Positions 1,882-25,564 of a stretch of DNA of 32,093 nt are shown here, in pieces. A program made the position numbers and the translations under genes. The stretch spans positions 1-32,093 of the forward strand of contig JAZDHC010000143.1 of the NCBI GenBank assembly GCA_043806395.1, read 5' to 3'. This DNA is from Candidatus Desantisbacteria bacterium (GTDB taxonomy: Bacteria > UBA9089 > CG2-30-40-21). The notes below the pieces were generated by a model, which was not told where the DNA came from, did not search any database, and saw only the letters and a list, made by a program, of their open reading frames with translations. Every line of letters starts with the position of its first letter. Position 1 is the stretch's first letter.

Positions 1882-3309
1882 TTATAAGTTAACACAACCT
1901 ATCCCCTTAGCTGACTCCAAGGCAAAAGAAATGAACGATTGTGGCAGGATGCCTATGAGGAAAAGTCCAAGCATAATGAGGATAAGTACTGTTCTTAACA
2001 AAAATGGGGTAGGAATAATAGACTCATCCTTTACTTCCCCAAAGTACATGGATTTAAGGATGCGGAAGTAGTAATAAACCGAGATTGTACTAAAGATAAA
2101 ACCAATTGCTGCCAGATAGATATATCCGCTATGTATTGCATAAGCAAACAGATAAAACTTACCCATAAACCCGGCTAAGGGTGGCAATCCAGCAAGTGAA
2201 GCCAGACAGATAAGCATACACATACATAAAAATGGTGATCGTTGGTACATTCCAGTATACCCATCAATCTCGTCAGTATTTATCTTGTTAGAAATAATGG
2301 CTATAACCATGAATATTCCAAGTGTGGCTAAAGCATAAACAAGCAGGTAAAACATTACTGCTGACAGCCCATTTGTAGTGCCTATTATTATGCCAATAAG
2401 CAGATACCCGGCATGCCCAATACTTGAGTAAGCCAATAGCCTCTTTATGTTTGCCTGAGGAATAGCAGAGAGATTACCAATAGCCATGGTAAGGATACAG
2501 AGAACAATCAACGCCATTGTCCACTCTTGTCTTATTCCGCCAAATCCCTCTATAAATACTCGAATAAAGACTGCAAATGAGGCTGCCTTTGAGGCTGAGG
2601 CAAGAAAGCCTGTAATTGGTGTTGGTGCTCCCTCATATGCCTCTGGTACCCAGAAATGGAATGGAATACAAGCTATCTTGAACCCAAACCCGGCCAATGT
2701 AAATGCCAGCCCCAGTAGCAAAACACATCGATTATCTCCCTTGCTCAAAAATTCCCCTATTCCCTGTATCTCTGTTGTCCCGGTTATACCATAGATTATG
2801 CCCAATCCATAAAGCAATATTGCTGAACAACATGCCCCAAACAATAGATACTTTATTCCACCCTCAATTCCTTGCTTTGTTCGAAGATATGCCACCAGCA
2901 CATACGAACCAATACTCAGCAGCTCAAGGCTTACGAACAGGCTGATGAGTTCACCTGTTGAAACCATAAACATCGTGCCCATGATAACCAGGAGTAACAC
3001 AAAGTAATACTCACCATGATGAGTCGTGCGGTCTTTAAGATAATCCATTGAGGAAAAAACAACCAATATCCCAATCCCTAAGAGAAGATACTTGAAATAT
3101 ATGGAAAATGAATCAACCACAAAGCTCCTGTTACCAAAGGCAAGCCCATGTGGTGTATTATAGACAGCAACCATCCCGGCTATTAATCCAGCAATGGCTA
3201 TCCAGCCAAGCAGCTTTTTGGCTGACTGTGGTAGGAATAAATCCATAACAAGTATAAACATGGCTGTACAACAAATTATTATTTCTGGTGTAAGTAATGT
3301 ATAATTCAA
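1882..3309 (-). CDS. nuoN: NADH-quinone oxidoreductase subunit N
   Basis: Polytopic; EGGIKY, GFGFKIACIPFHFWVPEAYEGAPT, NIKRLLAYSSIGHAGY; TTG start with GGAGG RBS. Confidence 0.95.
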   Translation of the reverse strand: MNYTLLTPEIIICCTAMFILVMDLFLPQSAKKLLGWIAIAGLIAGMVAVYNTPHGLAFGNRSFVVDSFSIYFKYLLLGIGILVVFSSMDYLKDRTTHHGEYYFVLLLVIMGTMFMVSTGELISLFVSLELLSIGSYVLVAYLRTKQGIEGGIKYLLFGACCSAILLYGLGIIYGITGTTEIQGIGEFLSKGDNRCVLLLGLAFTLAGFGFKIACIPFHFWVPEAYEGAPTPITGFLASASKAASFAVFIRVFIEGFGGIRQEWTMALIVLCILTMAIGNLSAIPQANIKRLLAYSSIGHAGYLLIGIIIGTTNGLSAVMFYLLVYALATLGIFMVIAIISNKINTDEIDGYTGMYQRSPFLCMCMLICLASLAGLPPLAGFMGKFYLFAYAIHSGYIYLAAIGFIFSTISVYYYFRILKSMYFGEVKDESIIPTPFLLRTVLILIMLGLFLIGILPQSFISFALESAKGIGCVNL

Positions 3310-3329
3310 GGTAAATCCTCCAATGACTT

Positions 3330-3385
3330 GTAGTGGAGGGCTTTAGCCCTCCATCAGAAAATGGAAGGCTGAAGCCTTCCACTAC
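3330..3385. repeat. GTAG-type REP doublet (REPIN-like)
   Basis: GTAG-TGGAGGGCTTTAGCCCTCCA-spacer-TGGAAGGCTGAAGCCTTCCA-CTAC: two hairpins in inverted orientation; related copy at 29183-29235. Confidence 0.85.
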
Positions 3386-4864
3386 TTACGGCATTATCCC
3401 CTTAACCATCTGTGTCGTAGAAACATTCATCAAATTAACCAATAGGGCAGGATAAATGCCTATCAGGATGATAATTATTAATATGGGTATAATCGCCAGA
3501 AGTTCTCTTTTATTTATATCCGTCAGATGTTCCCACTTTGGAGAAAGTCCTCTCCAGAACACCCTTTCCATCATCCACAAAAGGTAAACCGCAGTTATAA
3601 CCACACCACTTGTAGATAATATTGCCAATAGCTTAAACCCAGGTAATGTGCTCACAAATGTACCCATCAGACAGACAAACTCACCGATAAACCCGGCCAG
3701 TCCTGGCAAGCCAAGTGAGGCTAAGACTGCAAGCATCATTAGTCCTGTATATATTGGCATTTTTTGCCATAACCCGCTGAATTCATCAATATTCCTGGTA
3801 TGTGCCCGATCATAGATAACCCCAACAAGCATAAACAAGCTGCCAGTTACTGCCCCATGGGTAAACATCTGGACAACCGCCCCATTTATTCCGGTTACGG
3901 TTAAGGCACTCATAGCTATCAGGCAAAATCCCATATGGCTGATACTCGAATAGGCGATCATCTTCTTTAAGTCATTCTGAGCCATAGCTGTTAAAGCACC
4001 GTAGATAATATTGATTACACCAAGTACTGCAAATGGATAGGCAAAATATATGGCTGCCTCTGGAAATATAGGGAAACTTATCCTTAAAAATCCATAGACC
4101 CCCATCTTTAGTAATATACCAGCAAGAATAACGCTGGCTGCGGTTGGTGCTTCGGTATGTGCATCTGGAAGCCATGTATGAAATGGCCAGATAGGCACCT
4201 TAACTGCAAACCCGATAAAGAATAATAAGAACATTATATTTTGAAACTCTCTGGCAAAACTGCATGTCTTAGAAAGTTCCAGAATATCCATGGTATGTGG
4301 GTTAGAGGTGAAATAGACGCACAATATTCCAATAAGCATTATTAAACTGCCAGCCACAGTGTAAAGCACAAACTTAATAGCTGCATACCTTCTTCTTGGT
4401 CCTCCCCACACACCTATAAGGAAATACATGGGAATAAGCACAACCTCCCAGAAGATATAAAACAAGAATAGATCCATGGCAACAAAAACCCCGAGCATTC
4501 CGACCTCAAGTACCAGAAAAAGGATGAAATATTCCTTTACCCTCTTTGTTATATTGCAGGAAATAAGGACAGCTAAAAAGGTTAATAGAGCGGTCAGCAA
4601 AAAGATGGATATACTTATTCCATCAAGTCCAACGAAATAATGAATATTAAAGATTGGAATCCATAATATTTTTTCTACAAATTGCATTTGGCTAATAGCA
4701 GGATTAAAATTGGCATAGACTATTCCTGCAAGAACAAGAGGAATAAACGAAAACACCAATGCCAGTCCCTTGATAGTCTTCTCCATCTCCTTTGGCGTAC
4801 AAAGGATAAGCATTCCACCTATCAATGGTATAAATATCATCCAACTTAAAATTGGGAAATCCAT
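3386..4864 (-). CDS. nuoM: NADH-quinone oxidoreductase subunit M
   Basis: FYIFWEVVLIPMYFLIGVWGG, FAVKVPIWPFHTWLPDAHTEAP, KKMIAYSSISHMG. Confidence 0.95.
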   Translation of the reverse strand: MDFPILSWMIFIPLIGGMLILCTPKEMEKTIKGLALVFSFIPLVLAGIVYANFNPAISQMQFVEKILWIPIFNIHYFVGLDGISISIFLLTALLTFLAVLISCNITKRVKEYFILFLVLEVGMLGVFVAMDLFLFYIFWEVVLIPMYFLIGVWGGPRRRYAAIKFVLYTVAGSLIMLIGILCVYFTSNPHTMDILELSKTCSFAREFQNIMFLLFFIGFAVKVPIWPFHTWLPDAHTEAPTAASVILAGILLKMGVYGFLRISFPIFPEAAIYFAYPFAVLGVINIIYGALTAMAQNDLKKMIAYSSISHMGFCLIAMSALTVTGINGAVVQMFTHGAVTGSLFMLVGVIYDRAHTRNIDEFSGLWQKMPIYTGLMMLAVLASLGLPGLAGFIGEFVCLMGTFVSTLPGFKLLAILSTSGVVITAVYLLWMMERVFWRGLSPKWEHLTDINKRELLAIIPILIIIILIGIYPALLVNLMNVSTTQMVKGIMP

Positions 4865-4921
4865 TGTTTGCTCCTTATTATCAGATAATTTTTCACCTGT
4901 ACAACTATAAACAAGAAATTG

Positions 4922-5054
4922 TATCCACAGATTACACAGATTGCACAGATTAATAAAAAGAGTAGAGAATAGAGAGAGTATTGTTACTTTCTTTATTTTT
5001 TATTTTCTCTATTCTCTCTATATTCATCTGTGTAATCTGTGTAATCTGTGGATA
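4922..5054. repeat. Palindromic element with 9-nt tandem-repeat arms (CACAGATTA / TAATCTGTG)
   Basis: TATCCACAGATTACACAGATTGCACAGAT ... ATCTGTGTAATCTGTGTAATCTGTGGATA around an AT-rich, partly self-complementary core; lies between nuoL and nuoM. Confidence 0.85.
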
Positions 5055-5071
5055 TAATCCTATCCAACATA

Positions 5072-6940
5072 TCATCCGCCCCACATCCAGATAACCAACA
5101 AGATAATTATTCCCACCATCATTGCCAGAATATATGATTGAATCAATCCTGTTTGTACTTTTCTGACAAATGAGCCGCATCCAGCCGTAACATTTGCCAC
5201 ACCATTTACTGTTCCATCAATTACGCACCTGTCAAACTTTACGCTGAATTTTGTCAAACCCACAAATGGCTTAACAATAACAACATCATATATTTCATCA
5301 AAGTAATACTTATTAAACACCAGCTTATAAATAAATGTTTTTTTAACAAAATCAAGATTGATAACCTTTATCCCATAAACCAACCATGCCGAAAGTATCC
5401 CTATGCCAGCCATGGAGAGTGAAATAAGCATAACTAACTGATGTCCTGAATGTTCCACTCCGTGATGAGCTGCATGTCCACTATCAAAGCAGACAAAGCT
5501 TTGGAACCAGTTATTTAAGTAAGGCGAACCAATAAACCCGGCTGTTATGGCTAAAAATGCCAGTATACACATGGGTATTGTCATTACCCATGGCGACTCA
5601 TGTGGATGAGCATCATGCTTTCTCGTCTCACCACCAAAGGTAACAAAGCAAAGCCTGAACATATAAAAGGCTGTCATCAATGCCCCAATTTCACCTATAA
5701 TAAATAATAGCATATGCCCCGAGGAATAAGCAGCCATTAATACCGTTTCCTTGCTCCAGAACCCGGCAAGGGGAGGCACTCCGGCAATGGCTAAGGAACC
5801 GATAATAAATACTATAGCTGTTATCGGCATTTTTTTACCCAGACCACCCATATCCCAGATATTATTGGAATGCATAGCATGGATAACACTCCCTGCTGCT
5901 AAGAATAAGAGTGCCTTGAAAAAGGCATGGGTTGTCAAATGAAACATCCCTGCAGAAAATCCGCCAACACCTAAGGCAAGCATCATATAACCGAGTTGGC
6001 TCAGGGTTGAGTAGGCAAGTACGCGTTTAATATCATTTTGACACAAACCAATGCTTGCCGCAAACAATGCTGTAAATCCTCCTACATACCCAACTACAAG
6101 TAATGCATTTGGTCCGGCATCAAACATGGTATATGTCCTTGCTACCAAAAACACACCGGCAACAACCATTGTTGCTGCATGGATTAAGGCAGAAACAGGG
6201 GAAGGACCCTCCATAGCATCTGGAAGCCATGTATGGAATGGAAACTGTGCTGATTTCCCCATTGCCCCTATGAATATCAAGACAGCCATTAGGGTCAAAA
6301 TTTGTGGACTAATCTGTCCCTCATGAATCAACCCCTCTATACTTAAGAAGTTGAATGTGCCAGTATAAAGTCCAATACATAAAATACCAATCAAAAATCC
6401 TGCATCTGCCAATCTGGTAATAATAAATGCCTTCTTTGCTGCTGCTGCTGCCGATGGTTTGTGATGCCAGAAACCAATCAACAGGTATGAACAAAGACCA
6501 ACAAGCTCCCAGCAGGCAAAAATCGTAATAAAGTTGTTTGCCAGAACCAAGCCAAGCATGGAGAATGTAAATAACGAGATGAATGAATAATACCTTGAAA
6601 AATCAATATTCTTCTCTGATGACAAGTACCCTCTGGAATATACCTGAATCATCAGGCTTATCATGGTTACTACAACCATCATAATTGAGGATAAAGGATC
6701 TACCAGCATCCCCATCTCAATCTGAAACTCACCGCTCTCAAACCATGGAAGGCTAAATTCATAATGTCTCTGCCCACTTATTGCCAACTCTCTTAATATC
6801 CCGCAAGCCATTGAAAATGATGCCAGCATTCCGACGATAGAAAGCCATGATGAAAGGTTTTTGAACCTTTTAATGAAAAAGGTAATAATCATAAACACTA
6901 TAAACGGTATTGCTGGAATTAACCATGCATTATTTATCAT
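5072..6940 (-). CDS. nuoL: NADH-quinone oxidoreductase subunit L
   Basis: WELVGLCSYLLIGFW, GKSAQFPFHTWLPDAMEGPSPVSALIHAATMV, HAFFKALLFL; start moved to ATG 6940, which has an AAAGGAG RBS. Confidence 0.95.
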   Translation of the reverse strand: MINNAWLIPAIPFIVFMIITFFIKRFKNLSSWLSIVGMLASFSMACGILRELAISGQRHYEFSLPWFESGEFQIEMGMLVDPLSSIMMVVVTMISLMIQVYSRGYLSSEKNIDFSRYYSFISLFTFSMLGLVLANNFITIFACWELVGLCSYLLIGFWHHKPSAAAAAKKAFIITRLADAGFLIGILCIGLYTGTFNFLSIEGLIHEGQISPQILTLMAVLIFIGAMGKSAQFPFHTWLPDAMEGPSPVSALIHAATMVVAGVFLVARTYTMFDAGPNALLVVGYVGGFTALFAASIGLCQNDIKRVLAYSTLSQLGYMMLALGVGGFSAGMFHLTTHAFFKALLFLAAGSVIHAMHSNNIWDMGGLGKKMPITAIVFIIGSLAIAGVPPLAGFWSKETVLMAAYSSGHMLLFIIGEIGALMTAFYMFRLCFVTFGGETRKHDAHPHESPWVMTIPMCILAFLAITAGFIGSPYLNNWFQSFVCFDSGHAAHHGVEHSGHQLVMLISLSMAGIGILSAWLVYGIKVINLDFVKKTFIYKLVFNKYYFDEIYDVVIVKPFVGLTKFSVKFDRCVIDGTVNGVANVTAGCGSFVRKVQTGLIQSYILAMMVGIIILLVIWMWGG

Positions 6941-7007
6941 GAAACACTCCTTTGTGTCAGTTATACTCTCCAAGTTCACAATCTGTAATTTTTGTGTCTT
7001 CGTGTGA

Positions 7008-7430
7008 TTATAAGGTTATATTCCTCATAATTGCAGCCAACTTTGGCTCTTTCTCTGCAAACTCACGCAATATCCTCTCTAATCTTCCTTCTCTTTCCTC
7101 TAACATTTCCATCTTCTTCACAGCAGGAGCAAGAGCTGTCCTCCTATCCCAGAGAACAAACCCTACCAGAGCAAACATACCTGATAAGATGACATAGAGA
7201 AGATTTCGGATATCATCTATCTGCTTCTGGGAATTTTTCTGTCCTTCCTCAATTCTGGCAACCCTTACATCAATATTGTTTATTCTTATATTAATATCGT
7301 TTAGTTTTTCATCTATTCTGTCCAGCTTCTCTAAAATCTGCCTGTTGGTAATCGTCTCTTCGGAGGAACCATTACTAACCAGCCCAAGAATCAAAAGAAA
7401 CAATATCGTTACAATGCGTATTCTTTTCAT
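7008..7430 (-). CDS. Hypothetical protein: N-terminal signal/TM segment, coiled coil, second TM helix
   Basis: MKRIRIVTILFLLILGLV, heptad-patterned LEKLDRIDEKLNDINIRINNIDVRVARIEE, hydrophobic LLYVILSGMFALVGFVLW; co-oriented and fills the nuoK-nuoL gap. Confidence 0.75.
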   Translation of the reverse strand: MKRIRIVTILFLLILGLVSNGSSEETITNRQILEKLDRIDEKLNDINIRINNIDVRVARIEEGQKNSQKQIDDIRNLLYVILSGMFALVGFVLWDRRTALAPAVKKMEMLEEREGRLERILREFAEKEPKLAAIMRNITL

Positions 7431-7438
7431 AACTGCCC

Positions 7439-7744
7439 CTACCACTTCATCAAATTAATATCCTCAACATTAATACTCTTCATATGCCGATAAGCTGACA
7501 GGATAATAGCCAATGCAACAGCTACCTCTGCTGCCTCAATAGCGATAACAAACATTGTAAAGATATGTCCTGTTAACATATGGGGATACAGATACTTAGT
7601 AAATGCTACAAAATTGATATTAGCTGCATTAAGCATCAACTCAATAGATAATAATATCATCACTGCATTCCGTCTGACCAGAACACCGTAGATTCCCAGA
7701 CAGAAGAATATGGCACTTAGTATTAAATAATTCGTCAGGCACAT
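7439..7744 (-). CDS. nuoK: NADH-quinone oxidoreductase subunit K
   Basis: RRNAVMILLSIELMLNAANINFV, AAEVAVALAI; 101 aa; AGGAGG RBS. Confidence 0.95.
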   Translation of the reverse strand: MCLTNYLILSAIFFCLGIYGVLVRRNAVMILLSIELMLNAANINFVAFTKYLYPHMLTGHIFTMFVIAIEAAEVAVALAIILSAYRHMKSINVEDINLMKW

Positions 7745-7765: not shown

Positions 7766-9874
7766 TTAATAACTACTGTTTTTCCGTATTTCTGTGGCGA
7801 ATTTCCCTTCCCCCCACAACGCCCCTGTCGGACACGCTTCCACGCACTTACCACAAGAATCACACTCGGTTTCAGCCAATGGCTTGCCAAAGGTTGGCTC
7901 AATGGTTGTCTCAAACCCGCGATTAACAAAGCCGAGGGCACCAATCCCCTTTATCTCCAGACATATCCGTACACACTTGCCACACCTGACACATTTATTT
8001 GGATCCCGCAAGATAGCTGGATTGGAGCTATCTATTCTGTAATGATGTACCTTGCCGGATTTGAACCTATCCAGATCAACACCATATTCAATCCCGTACT
8101 TTCGCAAGGAACACTTATCAATGGCATTACATCCACACTCAAGGCAGCGGTTAGCCTCGGTTATGGCATTTACTTGCTTCAGTCCAAGCTCAACCTCATC
8201 AAAGCCCTTCAGCCTTTCCGCAATCTCAAGCTCTGGCATCCTTACCCGTGCCTGTTTTTCCACGCCCTCAAATTCGACACCATCAACTTCATCAAGACTG
8301 CCCTTGCTCACATTAAATATCAATGTCTCAGGGATAATCTTAAGCCCTCCTCGCAGGTATTGAGCAATCGAGTCAGCTGCTCTCTTACCACCAGCAATTG
8401 CCTCAATCACTGTTGACGCACCGCTTACCACATCACCAGCAGCAAACACACCAGCCCTGCCAGCACCCATATTATTATCAACTACTATTGTTTTGCCCCT
8501 GCCCAGATGAATGCCCTGTTCCTCAGCCAGACACGCAACCCCTGGAAACTGACCAATGGCTGCAATCACTGTATCAACAGCTATCGTAACCTCAGAGCCT
8601 TCAATGGGTACTGGCTTTCTCCTGCCGCTTGAGTCCGGCTCACCAAGCTCCATCCTGATACACTCAATCGCCTCTACCTTGCTATTTCCAATTACCCGTA
8701 CAGGGGCAGACAGGAAGTGAAACTGAACCCCCTCATGCTCTGCCTCATTAATCTCCACCTCATTAGCCGGCATCTCAGCCCTTGAGCGACGATATATCAG
8801 CATCACCTCATCTGCACCCAGCCGCAGGGATGTTCGAGCCGCATCAATGGCTGAATTCCCACCACCAATCACAGCTACTCTGCCCTTGAGTTTGATTTCC
8901 TTATTCAACCCCATATCCCGCAGGAAATCAATCGCAGATAGAACACCCTCAATCTCATCACCATTTACACCTAAACGAGAACTTCCGTGTGCCCCAATGC
9001 CAATAAACACTGCCTCAAAGCCATCACTCATCAGGCTGTCTATGGTAAAATCATTGCCAAGGGACATGTCACATTTTATTTCAACCCCATGTTTACAAAT
9101 ACCTGCAATCTCTTTATCTAACACATCTTTAGGCAACCTGTATTCTGGTATCCCATATCTCAGCATCCCGCCCGGTTCAGGCAATGCCTCAAATATTGTA
9201 CATTCATAACCCATGCCTGCCAGATAATAGGCACAACTCAATGAGGCAGGACCTGCCCCAATCAATGCCACTTTCTTGCCATTTTTTGACTGCTGACTGT
9301 TGACTGCCGACTGCTTATCAGGGCAGACACATAGGTCTGCCCCTACTTCCCAGTCTGCCACAAACCGTTTCAAGAAGTCAATTGCCACTGGTTCATCAAC
9401 CCTATTCCGTCTACACGCCAACTCACATGGTCTCACACAAACCCTGCCGCAAACTGCTGGCAATGGGTTATTTTCCCGTATAACTCGGGCAGCCTCTTGA
9501 TATTTACCCTCAGCTATCAACCCAATATAATCCTTAACCCTCACCCCTGCCGGACAAGCCATCTGGCATGGCGGCAGGCAATCACCATAATGGTCCGAAA
9601 AAAGCAACTCCAGACACAACTTGCGAGTTTCACGGATAAGCTCGCTCATGGTGGTAATTACCATGCCATCCCGCACCATCGTTGCACATGATGGAACCAA
9701 TGGTCTTCGTTCACCCTCAACCTCTACCACACACAGAAAACATGACCCAAATGGCAAAAGCTGTTTATCATGACAAAGGGTTGGGATATCAATCCCATTC
9801 AGCCTGGCTGCCTCCAGAATTGTTGCAGACTCATCCACCATATATTCTTGTTTATCTATAATTATTTTTACCAT
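7766..9874 (-). CDS. FAD/Fe-S NAD(P)H oxidoreductase: HydA/NuoG-type Fe-S scaffold with inserted GltD/NfnB-like domain (NfnA/NsoC-like, BfuA-type)
   Basis: N-terminal [2Fe-2S] (IPTLC..GSCFLCVVE..SC); ELLFSDH followed by a GltD-like block (PPCQMACP, VCGRVC, GAGPA, GGMLRYGIPEYRLP, GGGNSAID, YRRS, FAAGD); ends with RCLECGC and two ferredoxin motifs (KCVRCGKC, CDSCGKCVEACP). No H-cluster or Mo domain. Confidence 0.85.
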   Translation of the reverse strand: MVKIIIDKQEYMVDESATILEAARLNGIDIPTLCHDKQLLPFGSCFLCVVEVEGERRPLVPSCATMVRDGMVITTMSELIRETRKLCLELLFSDHYGDCLPPCQMACPAGVRVKDYIGLIAEGKYQEAARVIRENNPLPAVCGRVCVRPCELACRRNRVDEPVAIDFLKRFVADWEVGADLCVCPDKQSAVNSQQSKNGKKVALIGAGPASLSCAYYLAGMGYECTIFEALPEPGGMLRYGIPEYRLPKDVLDKEIAGICKHGVEIKCDMSLGNDFTIDSLMSDGFEAVFIGIGAHGSSRLGVNGDEIEGVLSAIDFLRDMGLNKEIKLKGRVAVIGGGNSAIDAARTSLRLGADEVMLIYRRSRAEMPANEVEINEAEHEGVQFHFLSAPVRVIGNSKVEAIECIRMELGEPDSSGRRKPVPIEGSEVTIAVDTVIAAIGQFPGVACLAEEQGIHLGRGKTIVVDNNMGAGRAGVFAAGDVVSGASTVIEAIAGGKRAADSIAQYLRGGLKIIPETLIFNVSKGSLDEVDGVEFEGVEKQARVRMPELEIAERLKGFDEVELGLKQVNAITEANRCLECGCNAIDKCSLRKYGIEYGVDLDRFKSGKVHHYRIDSSNPAILRDPNKCVRCGKCVRICLEIKGIGALGFVNRGFETTIEPTFGKPLAETECDSCGKCVEACPTGALWGEGKFATEIRKNSSY
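9287..9346 (-). repeat. In-frame GTAG-REP plus four 7-mers inside the flavoprotein gene
   Basis: Minus strand GTAGGGGCAGACCTATGTGTCTGCCCT (hairpin GGGCAGAC/GTCTGCCC), then GCAGTCG-GCAGTCA-ACAGTCA-GCAGTCA; encodes VGADLCVCPDKQSAVNSQQS. Confidence 0.75.
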
Positions 9875-12911: not shown

Positions 12912-12919
12912 ATCCACCC

Positions 12920-14497: not shown

Positions 14498-14835
<338 letters not shown>

Positions 14836-17802: not shown

Positions 17803-19608
17803 CTAATCTATCGCATCAAACTTACAAGCTGTAATACAAGATCTGCACATAGTACATTTTTCCCGATCAATAATTGCTACCTGCTTTTTCTCCCACACAA
17901 CAGCGTTTGAGGGACAAGCCTTAAAGCACACTCCGCACATCTTACATTTTTCTTCATTTACCTCAAATTTTATCAGATCAATACAAACCCTGGACGGACA
18001 TCGTTTTTCCTTGATATGAGCATCATACTCATCCCTGAAATAGCGAATGGTTGAAAGTATTGGATTGGCTGCTGTTTGACCAAGCCCACAGTGTGATGTA
18101 TTTTTTATATGCCTGCCAAGCTGTTCCAAAAATTCAATGTCCCCTTCCTGTCCCCTGCCAGCAACAATATCCTCAAGTTTATTGAGCATAACCCTTAATC
18201 CAATTCGACAGGGCACGCACTTACCACAGGATTCATCTACAGAAAAATCCGTAAAAAATCGGGCTGTATCAACCATACAGGTAGCATCATGCATAATTAC
18301 CACACCGCCAGAGCCCATCATGGCTCCAGCAGAGGTGAGTGAATCAAAATCTATGGTTATATCAAGCAGACTCTCTGGTATGCACCCACCAGATGGACCA
18401 CCAAGCTGTGCTGCCTTAAATTTTCGTTTGTTTGAGATGCCTCCGCCAATATCAAATACCAATGCCCTTAAGGATGTACCCATAGGCACTTCAACCAATC
18501 CAACATTATTTATTGCCCCGGTTAAGGCAAAGACCTTTGTGCCCTTGCTTCCCTCCGTGCCAATAGAGGCAAACCATGCCCCGCCATTAAGGATAATCTG
18601 TGGCACATTGGCAAATGTTTCAACATTGTTCAAGTTGGTTGGCTGTCCCCAGAGCCCTGATTCAGAAGAGCGGGGTGGTTTTATCCTCGGCATACCCCGT
18701 TTACCCTCAATAGAGTACATCAAGGCACTTGACTCACCACAAACAAATGCACCAGCACCTGGATATATCTCAATATCAAAATTAAAATCAGTACCAAAGA
18801 TATTTTTACCAAGCAATCCATATTCTCTTGCCTGCTCAATAGCTATATTTAATCTGTGAATAGCAAGCGGATATTCTGCCCGCACATAAATATACCCCTT
18901 TTCCACACCACCAATGGCATAGGCTGAGATAGCCATGCCTTCTAAAACCGCATGAGGGTCAGCCTCTAAGACTGATCTATCCATAAATGCACCCGGGTCA
19001 CCCTCATCACCATTGCAGACCGTATACTTTGGAAAATTCTTATACTTTCGGCACTCTTCCCACTTTTTCCCGGTTGGAAATCCGCCGCCGCCACGGCCCC
19101 GTAAGCCAGAGATAATCATCTCATTGATAACATCCTCTGGAGTCATCCCGGTTAATATTTTAGCCAATGCCTGATACCCATCACGGGCAATGTATTCGTC
19201 GATTTTCTCAGCATCAATCAGTCCACGATTCCGCAGGGCACGCAATACTTGATGTTTGAAGAACGGAATATCACTTATCAGGGGAACAGCCTCTTTTTCT
19301 GTTGGTGGGGTATACATTAAGTCCTTTACAGGCCGTCCCTTTAAGAAATGCTCTTCTACTAATAATGGTATATCCTCTGGCTTAAGGGAATGATAAAATA
19401 TACCCTCTGGATAAACTACAAATAATGGACCCTTAGCACAAAAGCCATTACAACCAGTTAAGGTTATCTGGATTTCTCTCTGGAGATCCTTTTTCTGTAA
19501 TTCATCCTCTAATGCCGTTTTTATCTTTGATGCACCACAAGCAACACAACCTGTGCCAGCACAAATTAATATATTAGCTCGAAATTGCGTCATTTCTTTC
19601 TCCCTCAT
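17803..19608 (-). CDS. nuoF: NuoF/HydB(BfuB)-like flavoprotein, copy 1
   Basis: N-terminal CAGTGC..GCNGFC [2Fe-2S], GLRGRGGGGFP, CNGDEGDPGAFMDRS, CGESSAL, GGPSGG, SCGKCVPCR, C-terminal 2x[4Fe-4S]. Confidence 0.92.
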   Translation of the reverse strand: MREKEMTQFRANILICAGTGCVACGASKIKTALEDELQKKDLQREIQITLTGCNGFCAKGPLFVVYPEGIFYHSLKPEDIPLLVEEHFLKGRPVKDLMYTPPTEKEAVPLISDIPFFKHQVLRALRNRGLIDAEKIDEYIARDGYQALAKILTGMTPEDVINEMIISGLRGRGGGGFPTGKKWEECRKYKNFPKYTVCNGDEGDPGAFMDRSVLEADPHAVLEGMAISAYAIGGVEKGYIYVRAEYPLAIHRLNIAIEQAREYGLLGKNIFGTDFNFDIEIYPGAGAFVCGESSALMYSIEGKRGMPRIKPPRSSESGLWGQPTNLNNVETFANVPQIILNGGAWFASIGTEGSKGTKVFALTGAINNVGLVEVPMGTSLRALVFDIGGGISNKRKFKAAQLGGPSGGCIPESLLDITIDFDSLTSAGAMMGSGGVVIMHDATCMVDTARFFTDFSVDESCGKCVPCRIGLRVMLNKLEDIVAGRGQEGDIEFLEQLGRHIKNTSHCGLGQTAANPILSTIRYFRDEYDAHIKEKRCPSRVCIDLIKFEVNEEKCKMCGVCFKACPSNAVVWEKKQVAIIDREKCTMCRSCITACKFDAID

Positions 19609-19617: not shown

Positions 19618-20001
19618 TCAATATGTCGCTTCATTACCAATTCCCAGGGCATATTCTTCTACAATGTTCCCACCAATAACATGTTCTAAAAGTATCTTTT
19701 TAATCTTCTCTCCATCTAAATCAACATATTTCACCGGTGACTTTCCTGCTAATTCAACAGTTACCATTGGTTCGCGACTACATAAACCAGCACAACCAGA
19801 GGTAGTAACAGTAACATCTGTCATGTTTTGTTGCATGATTTCATCCATTAAGGCAGACATTACCCCTCTTGCACCAGAGGCAATACCACATGTCCCCATG
19901 TGAATAATAAATCTCGCTCGATAACCACCCTCTCGCAGGGTACTTGTTGCCTTATATTGTTCCTTAATCTTTATTAAATCATCAATAGTTAACTTTGCCA
20001 T
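19618..20001 (-). CDS. Thioredoxin-like (2Fe-2S) ferredoxin, HydD/HndB-like subunit
   Basis: IHMGTCGIASGAR, TSGCAGLCSREPMVTV, HVIGG; ATG 20001 with GAGGGG RBS. Confidence 0.88.
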   Translation of the reverse strand: MAKLTIDDLIKIKEQYKATSTLREGGYRARFIIHMGTCGIASGARGVMSALMDEIMQQNMTDVTVTTSGCAGLCSREPMVTVELAGKSPVKYVDLDGEKIKKILLEHVIGGNIVEEYALGIGNEATY

Positions 20002-20002
20002 A

Positions 20003-20230
20003 TTAAAAATCACCCCTCAATCGTTCATGGATAAACCTTATTATCGCTGGTAGATTTCCTGATTCTGCCTGTATCATGGTTGTATCAAGCAGAGTTATGG
20101 TCTCTGCTATCCCAATTATATCCAACCCTTTTAATTTTGCCTGCCTCACAATTGCCCTTGGTGACATCTCCAGCTCAGCACAAGGTGACAGGCAAGTATG
20201 AATATGGAGATCTGTCTTAAATATTCTCAT
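20003..20230 (-). pseudogene. Truncated PHP-domain gene, probably a deletion fusion
   Basis: DLHIHTCLSPC..MSP..IV..A..KGLDIIGI is a PHP N-terminus, but the expected TDH and the rest of the domain are missing (75 aa only). Confidence 0.7.
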
Positions 20231-20495
20231 TTCTGATGCCAAGCTGGTACAATTTACCTGCCAACTCAAAGGCAGGCAATTGGCTCACCAAAATAGTTAT
20301 TCCTTCCTGTTTTGCTTTTTCCAGGGTATCTTCTGCTGGTTGTCGATTATTTACTAATATAATTCCCGATAATTCCTTTAAAACAGCCACAGCCACGATA
20401 TTCTGATGAACTTGCAGGGTAATCCAGACATTTCCCCTTTGAGCATGAGCAATGACATCAGACAATAAATCAGAAACATAACCGCCGCTTAATAT
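20217..20495 (-). pseudogene. DRTGG-domain protein lacking its N-terminus
   Basis: The frame extends upstream of the tracked start as LSGGYVSDLLSDVIA, then VWITLQVHQNIVAVA; an in-frame TGA lies inside the 20500-20540 palindrome and there is no ATG/RBS. Confidence 0.7.
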
Positions 20496-20610: not shown

Positions 20611-20892
20611 CTATTTACCCTTCTCATCTTCATCCTCATCTTCATCCCAATCATCCTCATCCTCATCCTCATCCCAATCATCCTCATCCTGTCCATGTCC
20701 CACAGACGATAATCCCTTAGCTACCTCTGCCACCAACCGAAAACATGACAGTTCACATAATCCGGTTGTTTCTAATATCTCCGGCATATGCTCTCCTACA
20801 TTTGACAGGTAAGCAACGCAACTCTCATCACACACCCTTTCCATATAACAACATTTTTTCTCTTTCTTTACCTCTGTCTTACAACAACCCAT
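20611..20892 (-). CDS. Small Cys-rich protein with a highly acidic C-terminal tail
   Basis: AGGAGG RBS; 8 Cys (CC, CC-x5-C-x3-C, C-x3-C); tail with (DEDDWDEDE)-like repeats. Confidence 0.75.
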   Translation of the reverse strand: MGCCKTEVKKEKKCCYMERVCDESCVAYLSNVGEHMPEILETTGLCELSCFRLVAEVAKGLSSVGHGQDEDDWDEDEDEDDWDEDEDEDEKGK

Positions 20893-20893: not shown

Positions 20894-21472
20894 TCAATTA
20901 TACCTCCTTAATATATCTATAATCTTCCCAGGCGTTACCATGCCATGGGTATCTTCACCAACTAATACAGCCGGGGCAAGCCCACAAGCCCCAATACATC
21001 GCACAGCCTCAAGTGTAAATTTTTTATCTTCCGTGGTTTCTCCAACCTGAATCCCTAATTCAGACTCAAGCTTAACAATAATCTCCTGTGCACCCTTAAC
21101 ATAACAAGCAGTTCCAGTACAAACCTTAATCAGATATTTGCCCTTTGGCACAGTAGTAAAAAAAGCATAAAATGTAACCACCCCAAAGATATGAGCTGGC
21201 GGCACATTAATTCCTACAGCAATATGCCGTTGCAATTGAGCAGGTAGATACCCAAACGCTTCTTGAGTTTCCTTCAGAATGGGGATAAGATAATTGGGCT
21301 TTGCACCATACTTTGCCACAATAGCATCTATCTGTGCCAATTGCTCGGGCGAAAATATTTCTATTGGTTCGGGGCTTGATTGAATCTTTGAACTCAATTT
21401 TTCATCACCCATTGTGTTCTTCAAAGCCATAAGTGTTTCATCTTGTTTGCAATTACAATTACATCCTGCCAT
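20894..21472 (-). CDS. nuoE: NuoE/HydC(BfuC)-like [2Fe-2S] subunit, copy 1
   Basis: GVVTFYAFF, VCTGTACYVKG, RCIGACGLAP; N-terminal extension MAGCNCNC. Confidence 0.92.
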   Translation of the reverse strand: MAGCNCNCKQDETLMALKNTMGDEKLSSKIQSSPEPIEIFSPEQLAQIDAIVAKYGAKPNYLIPILKETQEAFGYLPAQLQRHIAVGINVPPAHIFGVVTFYAFFTTVPKGKYLIKVCTGTACYVKGAQEIIVKLESELGIQVGETTEDKKFTLEAVRCIGACGLAPAVLVGEDTHGMVTPGKIIDILRRYN

Positions 21473-21490
21473 AACTTTTTTACCTCAAAA

Positions 21491-21910
21491 TTATTTCATC
21501 TTTAACAAAGGCAAATACGGTGACTCTGGCCTTACTTTCAAAGTTTGCTCACTACAATCTACGATTAAGTCCATCACTTCCATAATAATTTGCCCAACCA
21601 ATGGTTCAGAATTTGGTGGACCAACAATACAATCCGTATTCATTTGTCTATTGCCAATTCGTACACTTACTACACCAGCGATATTCCTTTCTTCTTTCCT
21701 TTCATCAGCATAGGTCACCACAGCCTTTCGTATAATCTCAAGTCCAAGAGCCTCCACGAGATCTTGTGGCAACATCAACATTATTGCCCCAGTATCTACA
21801 AGGGCTGTTGCTTCTTCTTTGCGAATTTGTGATTCCTTAATCTCTTTATTTGTACATCGATACCTGTCCCATGCATTTTCAAGACAGAGCGTTACATTTA
21901 CCTCACCCAT
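21491..21910 (-). CDS. Clan AA (retropepsin-like) aspartic protease, AF_0612-like
   Basis: ALVDTGA catalytic motif, LPQDLVEALGL, YAD, PLVGQIIMEVMDL; ATG 21910 with AGGAG RBS. Confidence 0.85.
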   Translation of the reverse strand: MGEVNVTLCLENAWDRYRCTNKEIKESQIRKEEATALVDTGAIMLMLPQDLVEALGLEIIRKAVVTYADERKEERNIAGVVSVRIGNRQMNTDCIVGPPNSEPLVGQIIMEVMDLIVDCSEQTLKVRPESPYLPLLKMK

Positions 21911-21920
21911 TTTTCTTCTC

Positions 21921-23099
21921 CTACCTGTCAATCTCCCCTAACACAATATCCAATGTTCCAATAATTGCCACCACATCAGCTATCATCGTGTTATTCTCAC
22001 ACATCTTGCCAATTGCCTGAAGGTTGGCAAAGGATGGCGTGCGAATTTTCATGCGATATGGTTTTGGAGAGCCATCACTAATGATATAAAAACCAAGCTC
22101 ACCTTTGGGTGCTTCAATAGATTGATATATCTCACCTATTGGCGGATTAAATCCCTCGGACATGATATGAAAGTGATGGATAAGGGATTCTATCGTCGTA
22201 TTCACCTTGTCTTTTGTTGGAGGCACGACCCTTGGATCATTTGCCATGAGCTTGCCCTCAGGCATCTTTTCAAGAGCCTGTTTAACTATACCATGGCTTT
22301 GTCTCATCTCTTCCAATCGTACCAGATATCGGTCGTATGTATCTCCTACTCCCCTGCCGGTTGGGATAGAAAAGTCAAGCTCATTATAAACACAATAGGG
22401 TTCTGCCCTTCGAATATCCCATTCAACCCCTGAGCCGCGAAGACAGGGACCACTCAGGCTATAATTTACAGCGTCCTCAGCAGAGATAATCCCCACATTT
22501 ACAGTGCGATCAAGCCATATCTTATTATTTGTCAATAATGCCTCATACTCATTTATTTTTGATGGAAATATATTAATAAACTCCGTTATCTTCTGTCGAG
22601 TGTTATTATCAATATCCTTTGGCACACCACCAATGCGAAAGGCAGTGGTAGTAAGCCTTGAGCCACAATACGACTCAAAGATGTCAAGTAGCAACTCCCT
22701 TTCTCTAAAGCAATACATGAATGGTGTAAATGCCCCTAAATCAAGGGCATGGGTTGCTAACCAGACAAGGTGGCTGACTATTCGGGTAAGTTCAGCCAGA
22801 ATTACCCTGATATAGCTTGCCCTCTTTGGCACACTTAACCCCAATAACTTTTCCACAGCAAGACAATAGGCAAGATTATTGGAAATCGCAGCAATATAAT
22901 CAAGCCTATCTGTCACCGGCAGAAATTGGGCATAGGTTTTGTTCTCAGCCAGTTTCTCCAGCCCACGGTGCAAATAACCCAGATCAGGTATAACCTTAGT
23001 TACCACCTCACCATCAAGGTGCACAATCAGTCTCAATACCCCATGCGTACTTGGGTGTTGAGGACCCATATTAACGATTAATTCTTGTACTTCAGACAT
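21921..23099 (-). CDS. nuoD: NADH-quinone oxidoreductase subunit D
   Basis: NMGPQHPSTHGVLRL, GYLHRGLEK, DRLDY, EAPKGE, GEIDR; no NiFe CxxC motifs. Confidence 0.96.
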   Translation of the reverse strand: MSEVQELIVNMGPQHPSTHGVLRLIVHLDGEVVTKVIPDLGYLHRGLEKLAENKTYAQFLPVTDRLDYIAAISNNLAYCLAVEKLLGLSVPKRASYIRVILAELTRIVSHLVWLATHALDLGAFTPFMYCFRERELLLDIFESYCGSRLTTTAFRIGGVPKDIDNNTRQKITEFINIFPSKINEYEALLTNNKIWLDRTVNVGIISAEDAVNYSLSGPCLRGSGVEWDIRRAEPYCVYNELDFSIPTGRGVGDTYDRYLVRLEEMRQSHGIVKQALEKMPEGKLMANDPRVVPPTKDKVNTTIESLIHHFHIMSEGFNPPIGEIYQSIEAPKGELGFYIISDGSPKPYRMKIRTPSFANLQAIGKMCENNTMIADVVAIIGTLDIVLGEIDR

Positions 23100-23129
23100 T
23101 TTTTGTCCTCTTTATCTGGAAATGCTCTC

Positions 23130-23184: not shown

Positions 23185-23252
23185 TTGATTTTCATCCCTT
23201 TGCAGGAATATACACCATGTTACTCGCCAAGCCTCATTTCCAATTGTCTCAA

Positions 23253-23392
23253 GGGCATCTCTAAAAGCTCAATCAAGTCATGATGGCAAGGCGCAAAGAT
23301 GCGAAAAAGCGCAGTTTACATGTGGTAAATGAGCATTTTAAGCAGCTTTGCAACGCCGCCAGCGTGGCTTCAGTGAGTTTTTAGAGATGCCC
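23253..23392. mobile_element. MITE, 140 bp, with 14-bp TIRs and a 4-bp target duplication
   Basis: GGGCATCTCTAAAA ... TTTTAGAGATGCCC flanked by TCAA at 23249-23252 and 23393-23396; second copy at 1-137. Confidence 0.9.
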
Positions 23393-23845
23393 TCAAAATA
23401 TCTCCAGCATTTTGCCTATCAATCCTGCCATTGAAATAGCAGCAAATGTCATGGCAAAAGTAAATAATCTGGTGGTTAATGCCCTGTTTTCTCTTAATCC
23501 TGCATCTATTTTTACATCCACCCTTTCTATCAATTTATCTAATTTAACATCAATTTGTTCAAATCGTTTGTCTATCTTATCAAATCGTTTGTCCACTTGT
23601 TCAAATCGCTTGTCCATCTTATCTTCAAGGGATTTTACCCCTGATTTTACATCATCTACCTGTTGTTGTAAATGATCAAATTTTACATTTATTTGTTGTT
23701 GCAAATAGCCGAATTTTAGATCCATTTGTTGTTGCAAGTGGTCAAAACGAACCTCAAAATATTTTGAGGTTGGGATGATATTTGTTATTAATACATCCAT
23801 TGTCTTTTTATCAAGCATTAATCCTTCTTCTTTTTCTTCTGCCAT
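23393..23845 (-). CDS. Hypothetical coiled-coil repeat protein with a C-terminal TM helix
   Basis: 11-aa repeats (FDHLQQQMDLK/FGYLQQQINVK/FDHLQQQVDDV), 7-aa repeats (DKRFEQV/DKRFDKI/DKRFEQI), hydrophobic C-terminus; GGGAG RBS. Confidence 0.8.
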   Translation of the reverse strand: MAEEKEEGLMLDKKTMDVLITNIIPTSKYFEVRFDHLQQQMDLKFGYLQQQINVKFDHLQQQVDDVKSGVKSLEDKMDKRFEQVDKRFDKIDKRFEQIDVKLDKLIERVDVKIDAGLRENRALTTRLFTFAMTFAAISMAGLIGKMLEIF

Positions 23846-23857
23846 ATCAATATCTCC

Positions 23858-24358
23858 CTACACCGGCACATGCGTCCTTAACTTTTCCTCAAGCCATTTC
23901 TCACCCACATCTGTCACCAATGGATAATCCTTTCGCAATGGATGTCCTTCCCAATCCTCAGGCAATAAAATTCGCCGAAGATCCGAATGATTATCAAACA
24001 CAATGCCAAACATATCATAAACCTCGCGTTCAAACCAGTTAGCTGCCTTCCAGACACTCTCCACCGAAGCAATGATTCCATTCTCTTCAACAGCAGCCTT
24101 TAGCCTGAGGCGATGCCTTTTGTTTATTGAATATAGATGATAGACTACATCAAAACGAGGTTGTCTTTCTGGATAATCCACACCACAAATATCTGTTAGA
24201 TAATCAAACTCTATCGTTGGTGTATCATGAAGAAATTTGCAGAACTCAAGAATGCTTTCCTTTTTAACACGAATGGTTAAATCCAACGCATCATCTACCT
24301 CTTCAATTGCTCCTGCAAATTTTGCTTTTATTGTATCAACGATTTCCTGTTTACTCAT
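23858..24358 (-). CDS. nuoC: NADH-quinone oxidoreductase subunit C
   Basis: GVDYP, RFDVVYHL, ANWFEREVYDMFGI, GHPLRKDYP. Confidence 0.96.
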   Translation of the reverse strand: MSKQEIVDTIKAKFAGAIEEVDDALDLTIRVKKESILEFCKFLHDTPTIEFDYLTDICGVDYPERQPRFDVVYHLYSINKRHRLRLKAAVEENGIIASVESVWKAANWFEREVYDMFGIVFDNHSDLRRILLPEDWEGHPLRKDYPLVTDVGEKWLEEKLRTHVPV

Positions 24359-24399
24359 ATTTGCCTGCCTTTTTAGTCTGTAACCTATAGCCTAATTGT

Positions 24400-24924
24400 C
24401 TACAGTCTATTCACCTGAGTAGTTACAATACTCATTCCCTTAATCTTGTCCTGCAACTTCATCAATCCATACAAAAGCCCCTCTGGTCTTGGCGGACAAC
24501 CAGGGACGAAAACATCAACCGGTATAATCTTATCCACGCCCTGTACTACATTGTATGTATTGAATATTCCGCCAGAATTAGCACAACTGCCCATGGATAT
24601 GACCCATTTTGGGTCAGGCATCTGATTGTATAATAATTCAATGCGTGGTGCCATCTTATAAGTAACCGTACCAGCAATAATCATCAAATCAGCCTGTCTT
24701 GGTGATGGTCTGAATACCTCAGCCCCAAATCGAGCAAGATCATACCGAGATGCACCTGTAGCCATCATCTCAATGGCACAGCATGCCAGACCAAAGGTCA
24801 GTGGCCATAAGGATGATCGTCTTGCCCAATTAATCATAAAATCCATTGGTGCCAGAACTATTTGTCCACCGGGTATTTTTTCAATCCTTACCCCTACTTG
24901 TTCAAGAATACTCATAACAACCAC
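24400..24924 (-). CDS. nuoB: NADH-quinone oxidoreductase subunit B
   Basis: [30 protein letters not shown]; start at GTG 24924 or ATG 24915. Confidence 0.96.
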
Positions 24925-24941
24925 ATCCTATTTAATATTAC

Positions 24942-25304
24942 TCAATTCCATTTCAACACACCCTTACGCCACGCATAAAGCAAGCCAATAAGCAAGATAA
25001 CAATAAAAATAGCCATTTCCACAAAAGCAACCAACCCTAATTCCTTAAATACCACTGCCCATGGGAACAGAAAGGCTACCTCAACATCAAAGACAACAAA
25101 TATCAAGGCAAAGAGATAGTATCGCATATTAAACTGTACCCAGGAGGAACCCACTGGCACCTCTCCGCATTCATAGGTAAACAGCTTTTTGGGTGATGGG
25201 TTGCTCGGACGAACAAGCCAGTTGGTCACATAACCACCAAACACAAACAGCATCCCAAGCCCCATAAATAAAATAACCCATCCATAATCAGCTAAAAGGT
25301 TCAT
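24942..25304 (-). CDS. nuoA: NADH-quinone oxidoreductase subunit A
   Basis: YECG, YYLFALIFVVFDVE, YAWRKGVLKW; ATG 25304 has a GGAGAGG RBS (alternative start 25316). Confidence 0.95.
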   Translation of the reverse strand: MNLLADYGWVILFMGLGMLFVFGGYVTNWLVRPSNPSPKKLFTYECGEVPVGSSWVQFNMRYYLFALIFVVFDVEVAFLFPWAVVFKELGLVAFVEMAIFIVILLIGLLYAWRKGVLKWN

Positions 25305-25330
25305 AATCCTCTCCATTTTGTAAGTTGTGG

Positions 25331-25525
25331 GTAACTACTCAGGTAGAGGAATTCACCACAGAGACACGGAGAACCACAAGAGATTTTCAGGGTGTTTTTA
25401 AGGTGTTCCCCTACGATTTAAGGCAACTTCTTCTGCAAGAAAAGTGAGAAATGAAAAAATAAGGGCATTCTTCATCAATTCTCCGTGTTCTCCGTGCTCT
25501 CTGTGTCTCCGTGGTGAGTAGTTAC
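25331..25525. mobile_element. MITE-like element, 195 bp, with GTAA ends and tandem-repeat inner arms
   Basis: TIR GTAACTACTCA / TGAGTAGTTAC; inner arms TCACCACAGAGACACGGAGA / TCTCTGTGTCTCCGTGGTGA; flanks AGTTGTGG / AATTGTGG (7 of 8 match). Confidence 0.8.
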
Positions 25526-25535
25526 AATTGTGGTT

Positions 25536-25564
25536 ATTATACTTTATGACAGTAACTTTGTCAA
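25536..25564 (-). promoter_or_regulatory. Sigma70 promoter of the nuo operon
   Basis: Minus strand TTGACA (25564-25559), 17-nt spacer, TATAAT (25541-25536): perfect consensus pointing at nuoA. Confidence 0.85.

Follow-up and report, generated by a model that had tools for sequence, protein, structure and literature searches.

The window analysed here, the complete 32,093-nt contig C143 (JAZDHC010000143.1) of a 2.73-Mb genome in 330 contigs assigned to a Candidatus Desantisbacteria bacterium (GCA_043806395.1), carries a ~23.7-kb nuo operon in which genes for two different modules of the Bfu family accompany those of one complex I core. The reading that we favour, at a probability of roughly 65%, is that the operon encodes two separate Bfu-family enzymes: a complex I of the class named Nuo-Bfu, whose head is here called module 1 (NuoE1, NuoF1, NuoG and a thioredoxin-like protein), and a soluble, short form of the Nfn-Bfu transhydrogenase, here module 2 (NuoE2, NuoF2 and a protein of 702 amino acids (aa)), whose genes have been relocated into the operon. 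An initial annotation made from the sequence regarded the arrangement as the best candidate for an undescribed system. That description does not hold for either enzyme, given that Nuo-Bfu was predicted in 2022 (PMC9304861) and that structures of Nfn-Bfu and Stn enzymes have been solved (PMC10482914, PMC11829005, from 2023-2025). What is new appears limited to the union of both known enzyme kinds in one operon of one genus. No report of an Nfn or transhydrogenase trio in a nuo operon, or of this Desantisbacteria operon, was found in the literature, a search that lay outside the supplementary cluster tables of PMC9304861, which might list Desantisbacteria.

The operon is a single co-oriented run, as first annotated. 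Twenty-five open reading frames (ORFs) follow one another on the minus strand from 25316 to 1882, behind a sigma-70-type promoter (TTGACA-17-TATAAT; 25536..25564, minus strand) that agrees with the consensus at 12 of 12 positions and is the sole perfect match within 14000-26000. In order of transcription these are nuoA, nuoB, nuoC, X1, nuoD, a retropepsin-like ORF, nuoE1, a 93-aa ORF, a truncated DRTGG ORF, an 88-aa remnant, a 131-aa thioredoxin-like gene, nuoF1, nuoG, nuoI, nuoH, X2, nuoJ, nuoE2, nuoF2, the gene for the 702-aa protein, nuoK, X3, nuoL, nuoM and nuoN, so that 8 small extra ORFs, together with several repeat arrays, are interspersed among the operon genes. Pfam recovers 14 nuo genes (A, B, C, D, E, F, G, I, H, J, K, L, M and N), which bears out the full nuoABCD/HIJKLMN set of the initial annotation as to content, the order being G-I-H rather than G-H-I, and it finds in addition a second 2Fe-2S_thioredx protein (E2) and a second Complex1_51K protein (F2).

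Both NuoF proteins can be assigned to the bifurcating HydB/BfuB type, as had been proposed on the strength of their size and motifs. At 601 and 598 aa, F1 and F2 each contain EGDPGAFM and FKAxQxGGPSGG, a single cluster motif CxxCxxC accompanied by a fourth Cys, a Cys-Met...His...Cys...Cys set and, towards the C-terminus, two CxxCxxCxxxC motifs. The two pairs are indeed non-identical, F1 and F2 sharing 52-53% of residues and E1 and E2 38%. Full-length alignments of F1 and F2 to solved HydB, StnB and NfnB chains score 654-867 bits, whereas the best respiratory NuoF, Thermus Nqo1, reaches 386-394 bits over the core only, and both proteins (468.6 bits for F1 and 492.1 for F2) fall under the 558.65-bit cut-off of the nuoF_fam equivalog TIGR01959. 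The FMN/NADH fold and N3-type cluster of NuoF, the NuoE fold and the N-terminal clusters of NuoG are shared with canonical NuoEFG (E. coli, Thermus Nqo1-3); unlike canonical NuoF, F1 and F2 have extra N-terminal thioredoxin-like and C-terminal 2x[4Fe-4S] domains. Each NuoE has four Cys with Cx4C...Cx3C-type spacing, and each BfuC is encoded beside a BfuB. Bifurcation or confurcation with NAD(H) and ferredoxin is predicted for both modules.

Module 1 corresponds in layout to the head expected of Nuo-Bfu, which Schut et al. (2022; PMC9304861) predict to be a 14-subunit complex I with a BfuABC head, oxidising NADH and reduced ferredoxin jointly while reducing menaquinone, in hosts that include Geobacter, Deferribacteres, Planctomycetes and Nitrospirae. 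Its genes, all on the minus strand, are nuoE1 (20894..21472), for a BfuC-type protein of 192 aa (2Fe-2S_thioredx, E 3.2e-51); a HydD-like thioredoxin-fold gene (19618..20013; 131 aa); nuoF1 (17803..19608), for a BfuB/HydB-type flavoprotein of 601 aa identified by its motifs and best PDB matches; and nuoG (15303..17756), for an 817-aa protein with an FdhA-like, non-catalytic molybdopterin domain, assigned by Pfam and scoring 467.3 bits against the 470.05-bit cut-off of TIGR01973. The best PDB matches of F1 are HydB of NiFe-HydABCSL (7t2r_B, 812 bits) and HydB of A. woodii (7q4v_B, 807 bits), as against 386.5 bits, over the core only, for Thermus Nqo1. The thioredoxin-fold gene had been called a HydD-like ferredoxin; fold and position stand, but the protein has 3 Cys only and its 2Fe-2S_thioredx match (E 5.7e-4) is below the cut-off. 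NuoG resembles FdsA-type chains (395 bits) more than it does solved complex I NuoG chains (~200-240 bits). That it might be a hidden formate dehydrogenase was considered and rejected, as the two best FdsA-type chains have their catalytic Cys-His opposite a gap in NuoG, and its score against TIGR01591 (formate dehydrogenase alpha), 472.9 bits, is under the cut-off of 666.25.

Relatives of F1 were surveyed in a sample of 251 Desulfobacterota genomes, 153 of which hold a match at E <= 1e-200. At the best 20 places identity is 63-76%, and 12 of these 20 sit in operons ordered nuoA-B-C-D, DRTGG, PHP-like, E, Trx, F, G, H, I, J, K, L, M, where PHP-like is the presumptive name that we give to the post-DRTGG gene on the basis of a motif only. 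The HydD-like gene separates E from F in 11 of these 12 nuo operons and directly precedes F in the twelfth (L122), which has no E match; at the locus it is absent in genomes G003 and G004. The Desantisbacteria locus thus resembles Nuo-Bfu in having a quinone-type NuoD and a BfuC/B/A-type E, F, G block placed centrally within the nuo cluster, in its accessory genes (DRTGG, the gene that follows it and the HydD-like thioredoxin), which are those common to 12 of the 20 best Desulfobacterota places, and in an F1 that is 68-76% identical to the F of those operons. It is unlike Nuo-Bfu in that nuoI comes ahead of nuoH, decay has affected the DRTGG and PHP-like genes, which stand after nuoE1 rather than before it, a complete second Bfu enzyme lies between nuoJ and nuoK, and the spacers contain small foreign ORFs and repeat arrays. 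The decayed genes are an 82-aa truncated DRTGG-domain ORF (20217..20465, minus strand), whose Pfam DRTGG match (E 8.2e-5) falls below the cut-off and covers profile positions 35-104 of 105 and whose similarity to its counterpart in Nuo-Bfu operons is 55-70%, and the 88-aa remnant (20003..20269, minus strand; no Pfam match) of the gene after DRTGG in related operons, which by tblastn matches the post-DRTGG ORF of G012 and of Desulfobacterota nuo operons at 34-74%. The core that module 1 would serve reads as quinone-type and not as a NiFe hydrogenase core, again in agreement with the first annotation: NuoD (21921..23099, minus strand; Complex1_49kDa, E 4.8e-118) passes the NuoD equivalog TIGR01962 with 581.6 bits against a cut-off of 459.35 and has no Cys at either terminus (GPQHPSTHG...DIVLGEIDR), and NuoB has four Cys, at 48, 49, 114 and 143.

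Module 2, likewise on the minus strand, is by homology an NfnABC/StnABC (Nfn-Bfu) transhydrogenase with NADPH, NAD and ferredoxin sites of its own, lacking only the FdhF-like domain. The first of its genes, nuoE2 (11917..12384), begins 2 nt beyond the end of the nuoJ ORF and encodes an NfnC/StnA-type subunit of 155 aa (2Fe-2S_thioredx, E 3.8e-50). The second, nuoF2 (10108..11904), encodes an NfnB/StnB-type bifurcating flavoprotein of 598 aa, identified by PDB matches: residues 6-588 align with StnB of Sporomusa ovata (8oh5_B) and NfnB of Caldicellulosiruptor saccharolyticus (9bov_B) at 867 bits each, Thermococcus NfnB (9n5u_B) scores 828 bits, and the N-terminal Cys pattern is identical to that of the solved StnB/NfnB chains. 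The third (7766..9874) encodes the 702-aa protein, a short-form NfnA/StnC with the Pfam order Fer2_4, Fer4_20, Pyr_redox_2, Fer4_Nqo3, corresponding to [2Fe-2S], GltD/NfnL-like FAD/NADPH and 2x[4Fe-4S] domains with no FdhF-like domain. It aligns with C. saccharolyticus NfnA (9bov_A) at 691 bits (1-699 onto 3-684 of 1178) and with StnC (8oh5_C) at 608 bits (3-687 onto 5-672 of 1172), and also with 9n5u_A; its closest public-contig match, at 84% identity, is from Candidatus Desantisbacteria bacterium CG2_30_40_21.

With StnABC (8OH5/8OH9) and the NfnABC enzymes of C. saccharolyticus (9BOV/9BP5) and T. sibiricus (9N5U), module 2 has in common three subunits with the same domain orders, the entries 8OH5 (Stn) and 9BOV (C. 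saccharolyticus Nfn) belonging to the solved Nfn-Bfu/Stn enzymes (PMC10482914, PMC11829005). Its large subunit aligns with StnC/NfnA through the [2Fe-2S], GltD/NfnL-like and 2x[4Fe-4S] parts but stops at 702 aa, without the ~490-residue FdhF-like domain, and unlike the Stn/Nfn genes those of module 2 lie inside a nuo operon. With NfnAB/NfnSL of Pyrococcus and Thermotoga it shares the GltD/NfnL-like FAD/NADPH domain (5jca_L, 333 bits; 4ylf_B, 338 bits) and the overall reaction, whereas it has no NfnS/NfnA-type small subunit, and in Stn/Nfn-Bfu enzymes bifurcation is attributed to the BfuBC core rather than to the GltD-type FAD (PMC10482914). The missing part corresponds to a catalytically inactive FdhF-like domain with two clusters (C1, C2) off the electron path (PMC10482914, PMC11829005). 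That domain is not universal, being present in S. ovata and C. saccharolyticus and partial in T. sibiricus. The short form itself was considered as a novelty and rejected as such: among the matches listed below 60% identity, 21 of 105 are short forms of 687-700 aa, several of them named Chloroflexi or Dehalococcoidales.

The initial annotation had left open whether the operon provides one complex I with swappable heads or a complex I with a co-expressed transhydrogenase, and it is the second option that fits the evidence. Under the first, E2, F2 and the 702-aa protein would replace E1, F1 and G on NuoB/C/D/I to give an NADPH-specific complex I. Both modules do reside in one operon, and the 702-aa protein shares homology with the N-terminal part of NuoG through its N-terminal [2Fe-2S] and C-terminal 2x[4Fe-4S] parts. 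Nevertheless, such an exchange is very improbable. The 702-aa protein has no counterpart of NuoG residues ~215 to 817 and lacks the C-terminal domain of NuoG entirely. In the solved Stn/Nfn enzymes a cluster chain leads from the FAD/NADPH site, where the third substrate enters, to the BfuB FMN (PMC10482914), and the NADPH domain occupies the place that would be needed for an exit to NuoI. Given that module 2 has its own three substrate sites and no free exit to NuoI, that nothing in it matches NuoG ~215-817 and that other families of the phylum have this complete, three-substrate unit away from nuo, we interpret it as a soluble enzyme rather than an alternative head.

The distribution of module 2 was followed in a phylum set of 25 genomes, the window's genome included, of which 6 make up the genus. 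In the 5 other genus genomes the genes again run F1, G, I, H, (X2), J, E2, F2, stnC-like, K, L, M, N, as far as contigs reach, and because both junctions recur there a chimeric assembly is ruled out. Module 2 lies between nuoJ and nuoK in 6 of the 6 genus genomes (~77-85% protein identity), and none of these genomes has a second full-length copy of the short form. Across the phylum, 15 of 25 genomes carry the short form at full length. In G012, G013, G015 and G022 the E2, F2, stnC-like trio stands on contigs without nuo matches, with 6-8 kb of flank around it in G012 and G015; in G021, F2 and stnC lie together on a contig without nuo matches that ends inside F2. The nuo operons of these families are on contigs other than the trio's, nuoJ and nuoK being 64 nt apart in G012, and at 10 of the 10 non-genus loci holding both genes nothing like E2, F2 or stnC was found between them. 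A maximum likelihood tree of the short form (74 proteins, LG+G4, quick search, outside proteins cut to the first 720 residues) groups ten genus sequences with four copies of families f3 and f4 (SH-aLRT 100), and copies from f6 and f7 lie in other parts of the tree, with weak support. The most parsimonious account is that three genes already resident as a unit were transferred into the nuoJ-nuoK interval in the genus ancestor.

The input module of complex I also varies by family in this phylum. At the nuo operon loci of other families that were examined (L097, L099, L100, L105), it is Bfu-type in G012 and represented in G015 by a NuoF-like gene matching the core only; G007 and G009 have nuoG without adjacent nuoE/F, and in G011 nuoD is followed by nuoI, with no nuoG. 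In Bacteroidota metagenome-assembled genomes (L039-L044, L030), a group-4-hydrogenase-like NuoN/L/H/B/C/D/I-like cluster, of which L030 shows NuoD- and NuoI-like genes only, is immediately followed by a GltD/NfnL-like gene whose product shares 35-37% identity with residues 103-507 of the 702-aa protein. This arrangement may be another way of linking NADPH to a complex-I-like membrane module.

Co-expression of module 2 with the complex I genes is close to forced, because only 2 nt separate nuoJ from E2 and 21 nt separate stnC from nuoK, and because the insert precedes nuoK to nuoN. Within the run, the number of terminator-like sites is close to chance (10 against 10.1 expected; 14 against 7.9 expected). 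Contigs from a groundwater RNA library cover 30 of the 30 bins of the stretch compared; one of them (10527-12640) spans F2, E2 and nuoJ, and another (6800-7690) spans ORF X3 and nuoK. The RNA runs labelled X3 and X6 hold small pieces only, the depth of RNA contigs cannot rank genes, and a spike at ~9304-9347 in several runs was dismissed as not signal, being a short word common to other organisms.

With identities, architecture, relocation and conservation of the layout established at the level of sequence, a mechanism may be outlined for the two-enzyme reading. The first enzyme would combine the quinone-type NuoA-D and NuoH-N core with a BfuC/B/A module made of NuoE1, NuoF1, NuoG and the HydD-like protein. 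This head, predicted to use ferredoxin and to be physically attached to the membrane core, would oxidise NADH and reduced ferredoxin together, with electrons passing to menaquinone and protons being pumped. The second enzyme would catalyse 2 NADPH + NAD+ + 2 oxidised ferredoxin <-> 2 NADP+ + NADH + 2 reduced ferredoxin, which we take to be the reaction of Stn as well. For NfnI, the conversion of two NADPH to one NADH and two reduced ferredoxins is stated in a published abstract. Since the products of Nfn-Bfu are the predicted inputs of Nuo-Bfu, a net NADPH:menaquinone route is suggested, in which the two enzymes would work in series, from NADPH through NADH and reduced ferredoxin to menaquinone with proton pumping. 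The reverse direction, generating NADPH, would also be possible.

The genome context, as seen in this one 98.7%-complete genome, fits such a route. An MqnA/D-type menaquinone synthesis gene is present, and no [FeFe] hydrogenase, RnfD or cytochrome bd was found in the genome. Contig C142 (3685-8387) holds dsrA (600.6 bits, above cut-off), dsrB and a 595-aa DsrL-like gene with the YRR motif. Given that this motif of DsrL is linked to strict NADP(H) use (PMC7596348), the set suggests NADPH-dependent sulfite reduction. The same genome has a third Bfu-type cluster on contig C295 (2498-8984), in which a NuoE-like gene is followed by a NuoF-like gene fused with a GltD-like domain (1036-aa frame) and then by an 850-aa NuoG/FdhA-like gene.

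Several points weigh against the two-enzyme reading. Nuo-Bfu is known from the 2022 prediction, beyond which the term was not found in the literature; the class is biochemically uncharacterised, and the function of its head with ferredoxin is predicted. Among the 20 closest F1 relatives in Desulfobacterota, eight have no nuo membrane genes next to them, and therefore an E-F-G trio can belong to other enzymes too. The RNA evidence, assembled contigs from one study, is weak support for co-transcription because such contigs neither prove a single transcript nor exclude carried-over DNA. The operons of this lineage tolerate many apparently neutral insertions, and consequently co-location alone is no proof of a functional link. 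Finally, deletion of the FdhF-like domain from S. ovata StnC left no active complex (PMC10482914); natural short forms may therefore need other stabilisation, leaving room for a partner.

The last of these points leads to a bound form of the two enzymes. The FdhF-like domain, together with the N-terminal domain, forms the tetramer contacts of StnC (PMC10482914), so the short form lacks a tetramerisation domain that is needed for a stable S. ovata complex and might dock on the Nuo-Bfu head, for example via the surface freed by that loss, and pass NADH- and ferredoxin-level electrons directly, without free ferredoxin. The result would be an NADPH-driven, proton-pumping menaquinone reductase. Co-transcription, as indicated by the tight junctions and the RNA contigs, and the unusually FdhA-like NuoG of this operon are consistent with docking. 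Short forms, however, also occur in families whose nuo operon lies elsewhere and are common in other phyla, and no genus-specific sequence feature turned up in the genus copies, no search having been aimed at one. On balance a stable association of this kind is improbable. If it were real, the bound form running in reverse would be a proton-motive-force-driven NADPH generator and could serve the NADPH-specific, DsrL-type sulfite reduction apparently encoded in this genome.

The tolerance of insertions is best appreciated from the insertions themselves. X1 (23393..23845, minus strand), a 150-aa coiled-coil ORF with a hydrophobic tail, matches no Pfam family at the cut-off and is probably an inserted gene, not a complex I subunit; a copy of it with 83% identity lies beside unrelated genes on contig C75 (3514-3945). 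X2 (12920..13414, minus strand), a genus-specific 164-aa coiled-coil/transmembrane ORF with no Pfam family, is found in G001, G002, G003 and G005 (59-78% identity) and as a remnant in G004, and is absent in G012, where H abuts J. X3 (7008..7445, minus strand), a 145-aa coiled-coil/transmembrane ORF with a weak XhlA match (E 9.8e-6, below cut-off), is an insertion in the window's species; it is not between K and L at locus L001, and a paralogue lies on contig C77. A role for X1, X2 and X3 as accessory subunits of complex I was rejected, in view of their scant mutual similarity (best E 3.8e-5 over 65 residues), their copies in unrelated contexts and their variation by species. Each has one hydrophobic segment, and X-like ORFs occur elsewhere in the nuo operons of G003, G005, G007 and G014. 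The retropepsin-like ORF (21491..21931, minus strand; 146 aa, Asp_protease_2, E 2.5e-8) is another inserted gene. It overlaps the end of nuoD, has 4 paralogues at ~32% identity elsewhere in the genome and is present in G003 as well; a similar ORF lies beside nuoK in G007 and G008. The 93-aa ORF (20611..20892, minus strand; no Pfam or NCBIfam match) has a Cys-rich N-terminus and a long acidic Asp/Glu tail partly encoded by a 27-nt repeat, with a 38-45% similar counterpart at the same place, between nuoE1 and nuoF1, in G003 and G004. Repeats are equally prominent: a 43-copy array of the heptamer TCTCAAC (14521..14835; 315 bp, Tandem Repeats Finder score 392) makes up most of the nuoI-nuoH spacer, a long imperfect hairpin of 9-mer repeats (4918..5058; 51-nt arms, 86% complementary) lies in the nuoL-nuoM spacer, and a perfect 18-20-bp palindrome hairpin (20498-20542) separates the 93-aa ORF from the DRTGG remnant. 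In relatives, the E2-F2-stnC spacers hold toxin-antitoxin-type cassettes (L095:6731-7331 and 9332-9966; L084:2757-3555), comprising DUF4160 with DUF2442, NTP_transf_2 with HepT-like (MntA/HepT) and DUF6036.

An operon that has taken up X1-X3 and the retropepsin-like ORF, that keeps decayed DRTGG/PHP genes, a 43-copy array and long hairpins, and whose relatives carry MntA/HepT and DUF4160/DUF2442 cassettes within the same module could have received Nfn-Bfu by chance and tolerated it. Module 2 would then be a neutral hitch-hiker, a transhydrogenase that serves redox balance in general and has no particular tie to complex I, as its location apart from nuo in other families might also indicate. 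Because the lineage's operons hold so many apparently neutral insertions, this explanation retains a real if distinctly minor share of the probability. Set against it are the retention of the arrangement in every genome of the genus at the protein identities given above, the tightness of both junctions in the window, the reliance of nuoK to nuoN on read-through across module 2, and the fact that one enzyme yields what the other is predicted to consume.

The remaining genes of the run, all on the minus strand, are nuoA (24942..25316; Oxidored_q4, E 1.6e-38), nuoB (24400..24924; Oxidored_q6, E 6.8e-31), nuoC (23858..24358; Complex1_30kDa, E 4.6e-50), nuoH (13425..14483; NADHdh, E 4.1e-124), nuoJ (12387..12917; Oxidored_q3, E 1.1e-35), nuoK (7439..7744; Oxidored_q2, E 4.1e-29), which begins 21 nt past the stnC-like stop, nuoL (5072..6979; Proton_antipo_M, _N and _C), nuoM (3386..4864; Proton_antipo_M, E 1.4e-82) and nuoN (1882..3309; Proton_antipo_M, E 1.3e-73), the final gene, which converges on a plus-strand SDR gene. 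For nuoI (14836..15306; two Fer4 motifs) the ORF opens at 15360, and the likely start is near 15306; orthologues in G003-G005 and G012 are 75-86% identical in alignments over residues 1-156. An Rfam scan of the window gave no family at its gathering score. Outside the operon, adjacent ORFs of 112 aa and 397 aa at 27634-29165 both match the ammonium transporter family, the former only at the N-terminal 65 profile positions; this minus-strand pair, downstream of glnA, may be a split or duplicated amt gene.

Nuo-Bfu has so far been a prediction only, and in this genus an enzyme that would make its exact substrate pair from NADPH has been placed inside the Nuo-Bfu operon. The keeping of that layout in all six genus genomes is independent, circumstantial support for the predicted pair of NADH and ferredoxin. 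More broadly, the N-modules of complex I vary within a single phylum, being Bfu-type, a short NuoF-like gene or nuoG without adjacent nuoE/F. The host lineage consists of uncultured, probably sulfite-reducing groundwater bacteria, and its operon offers a compact, 17-gene system for studying the links among the NADPH, NADH, ferredoxin and menaquinone pools.

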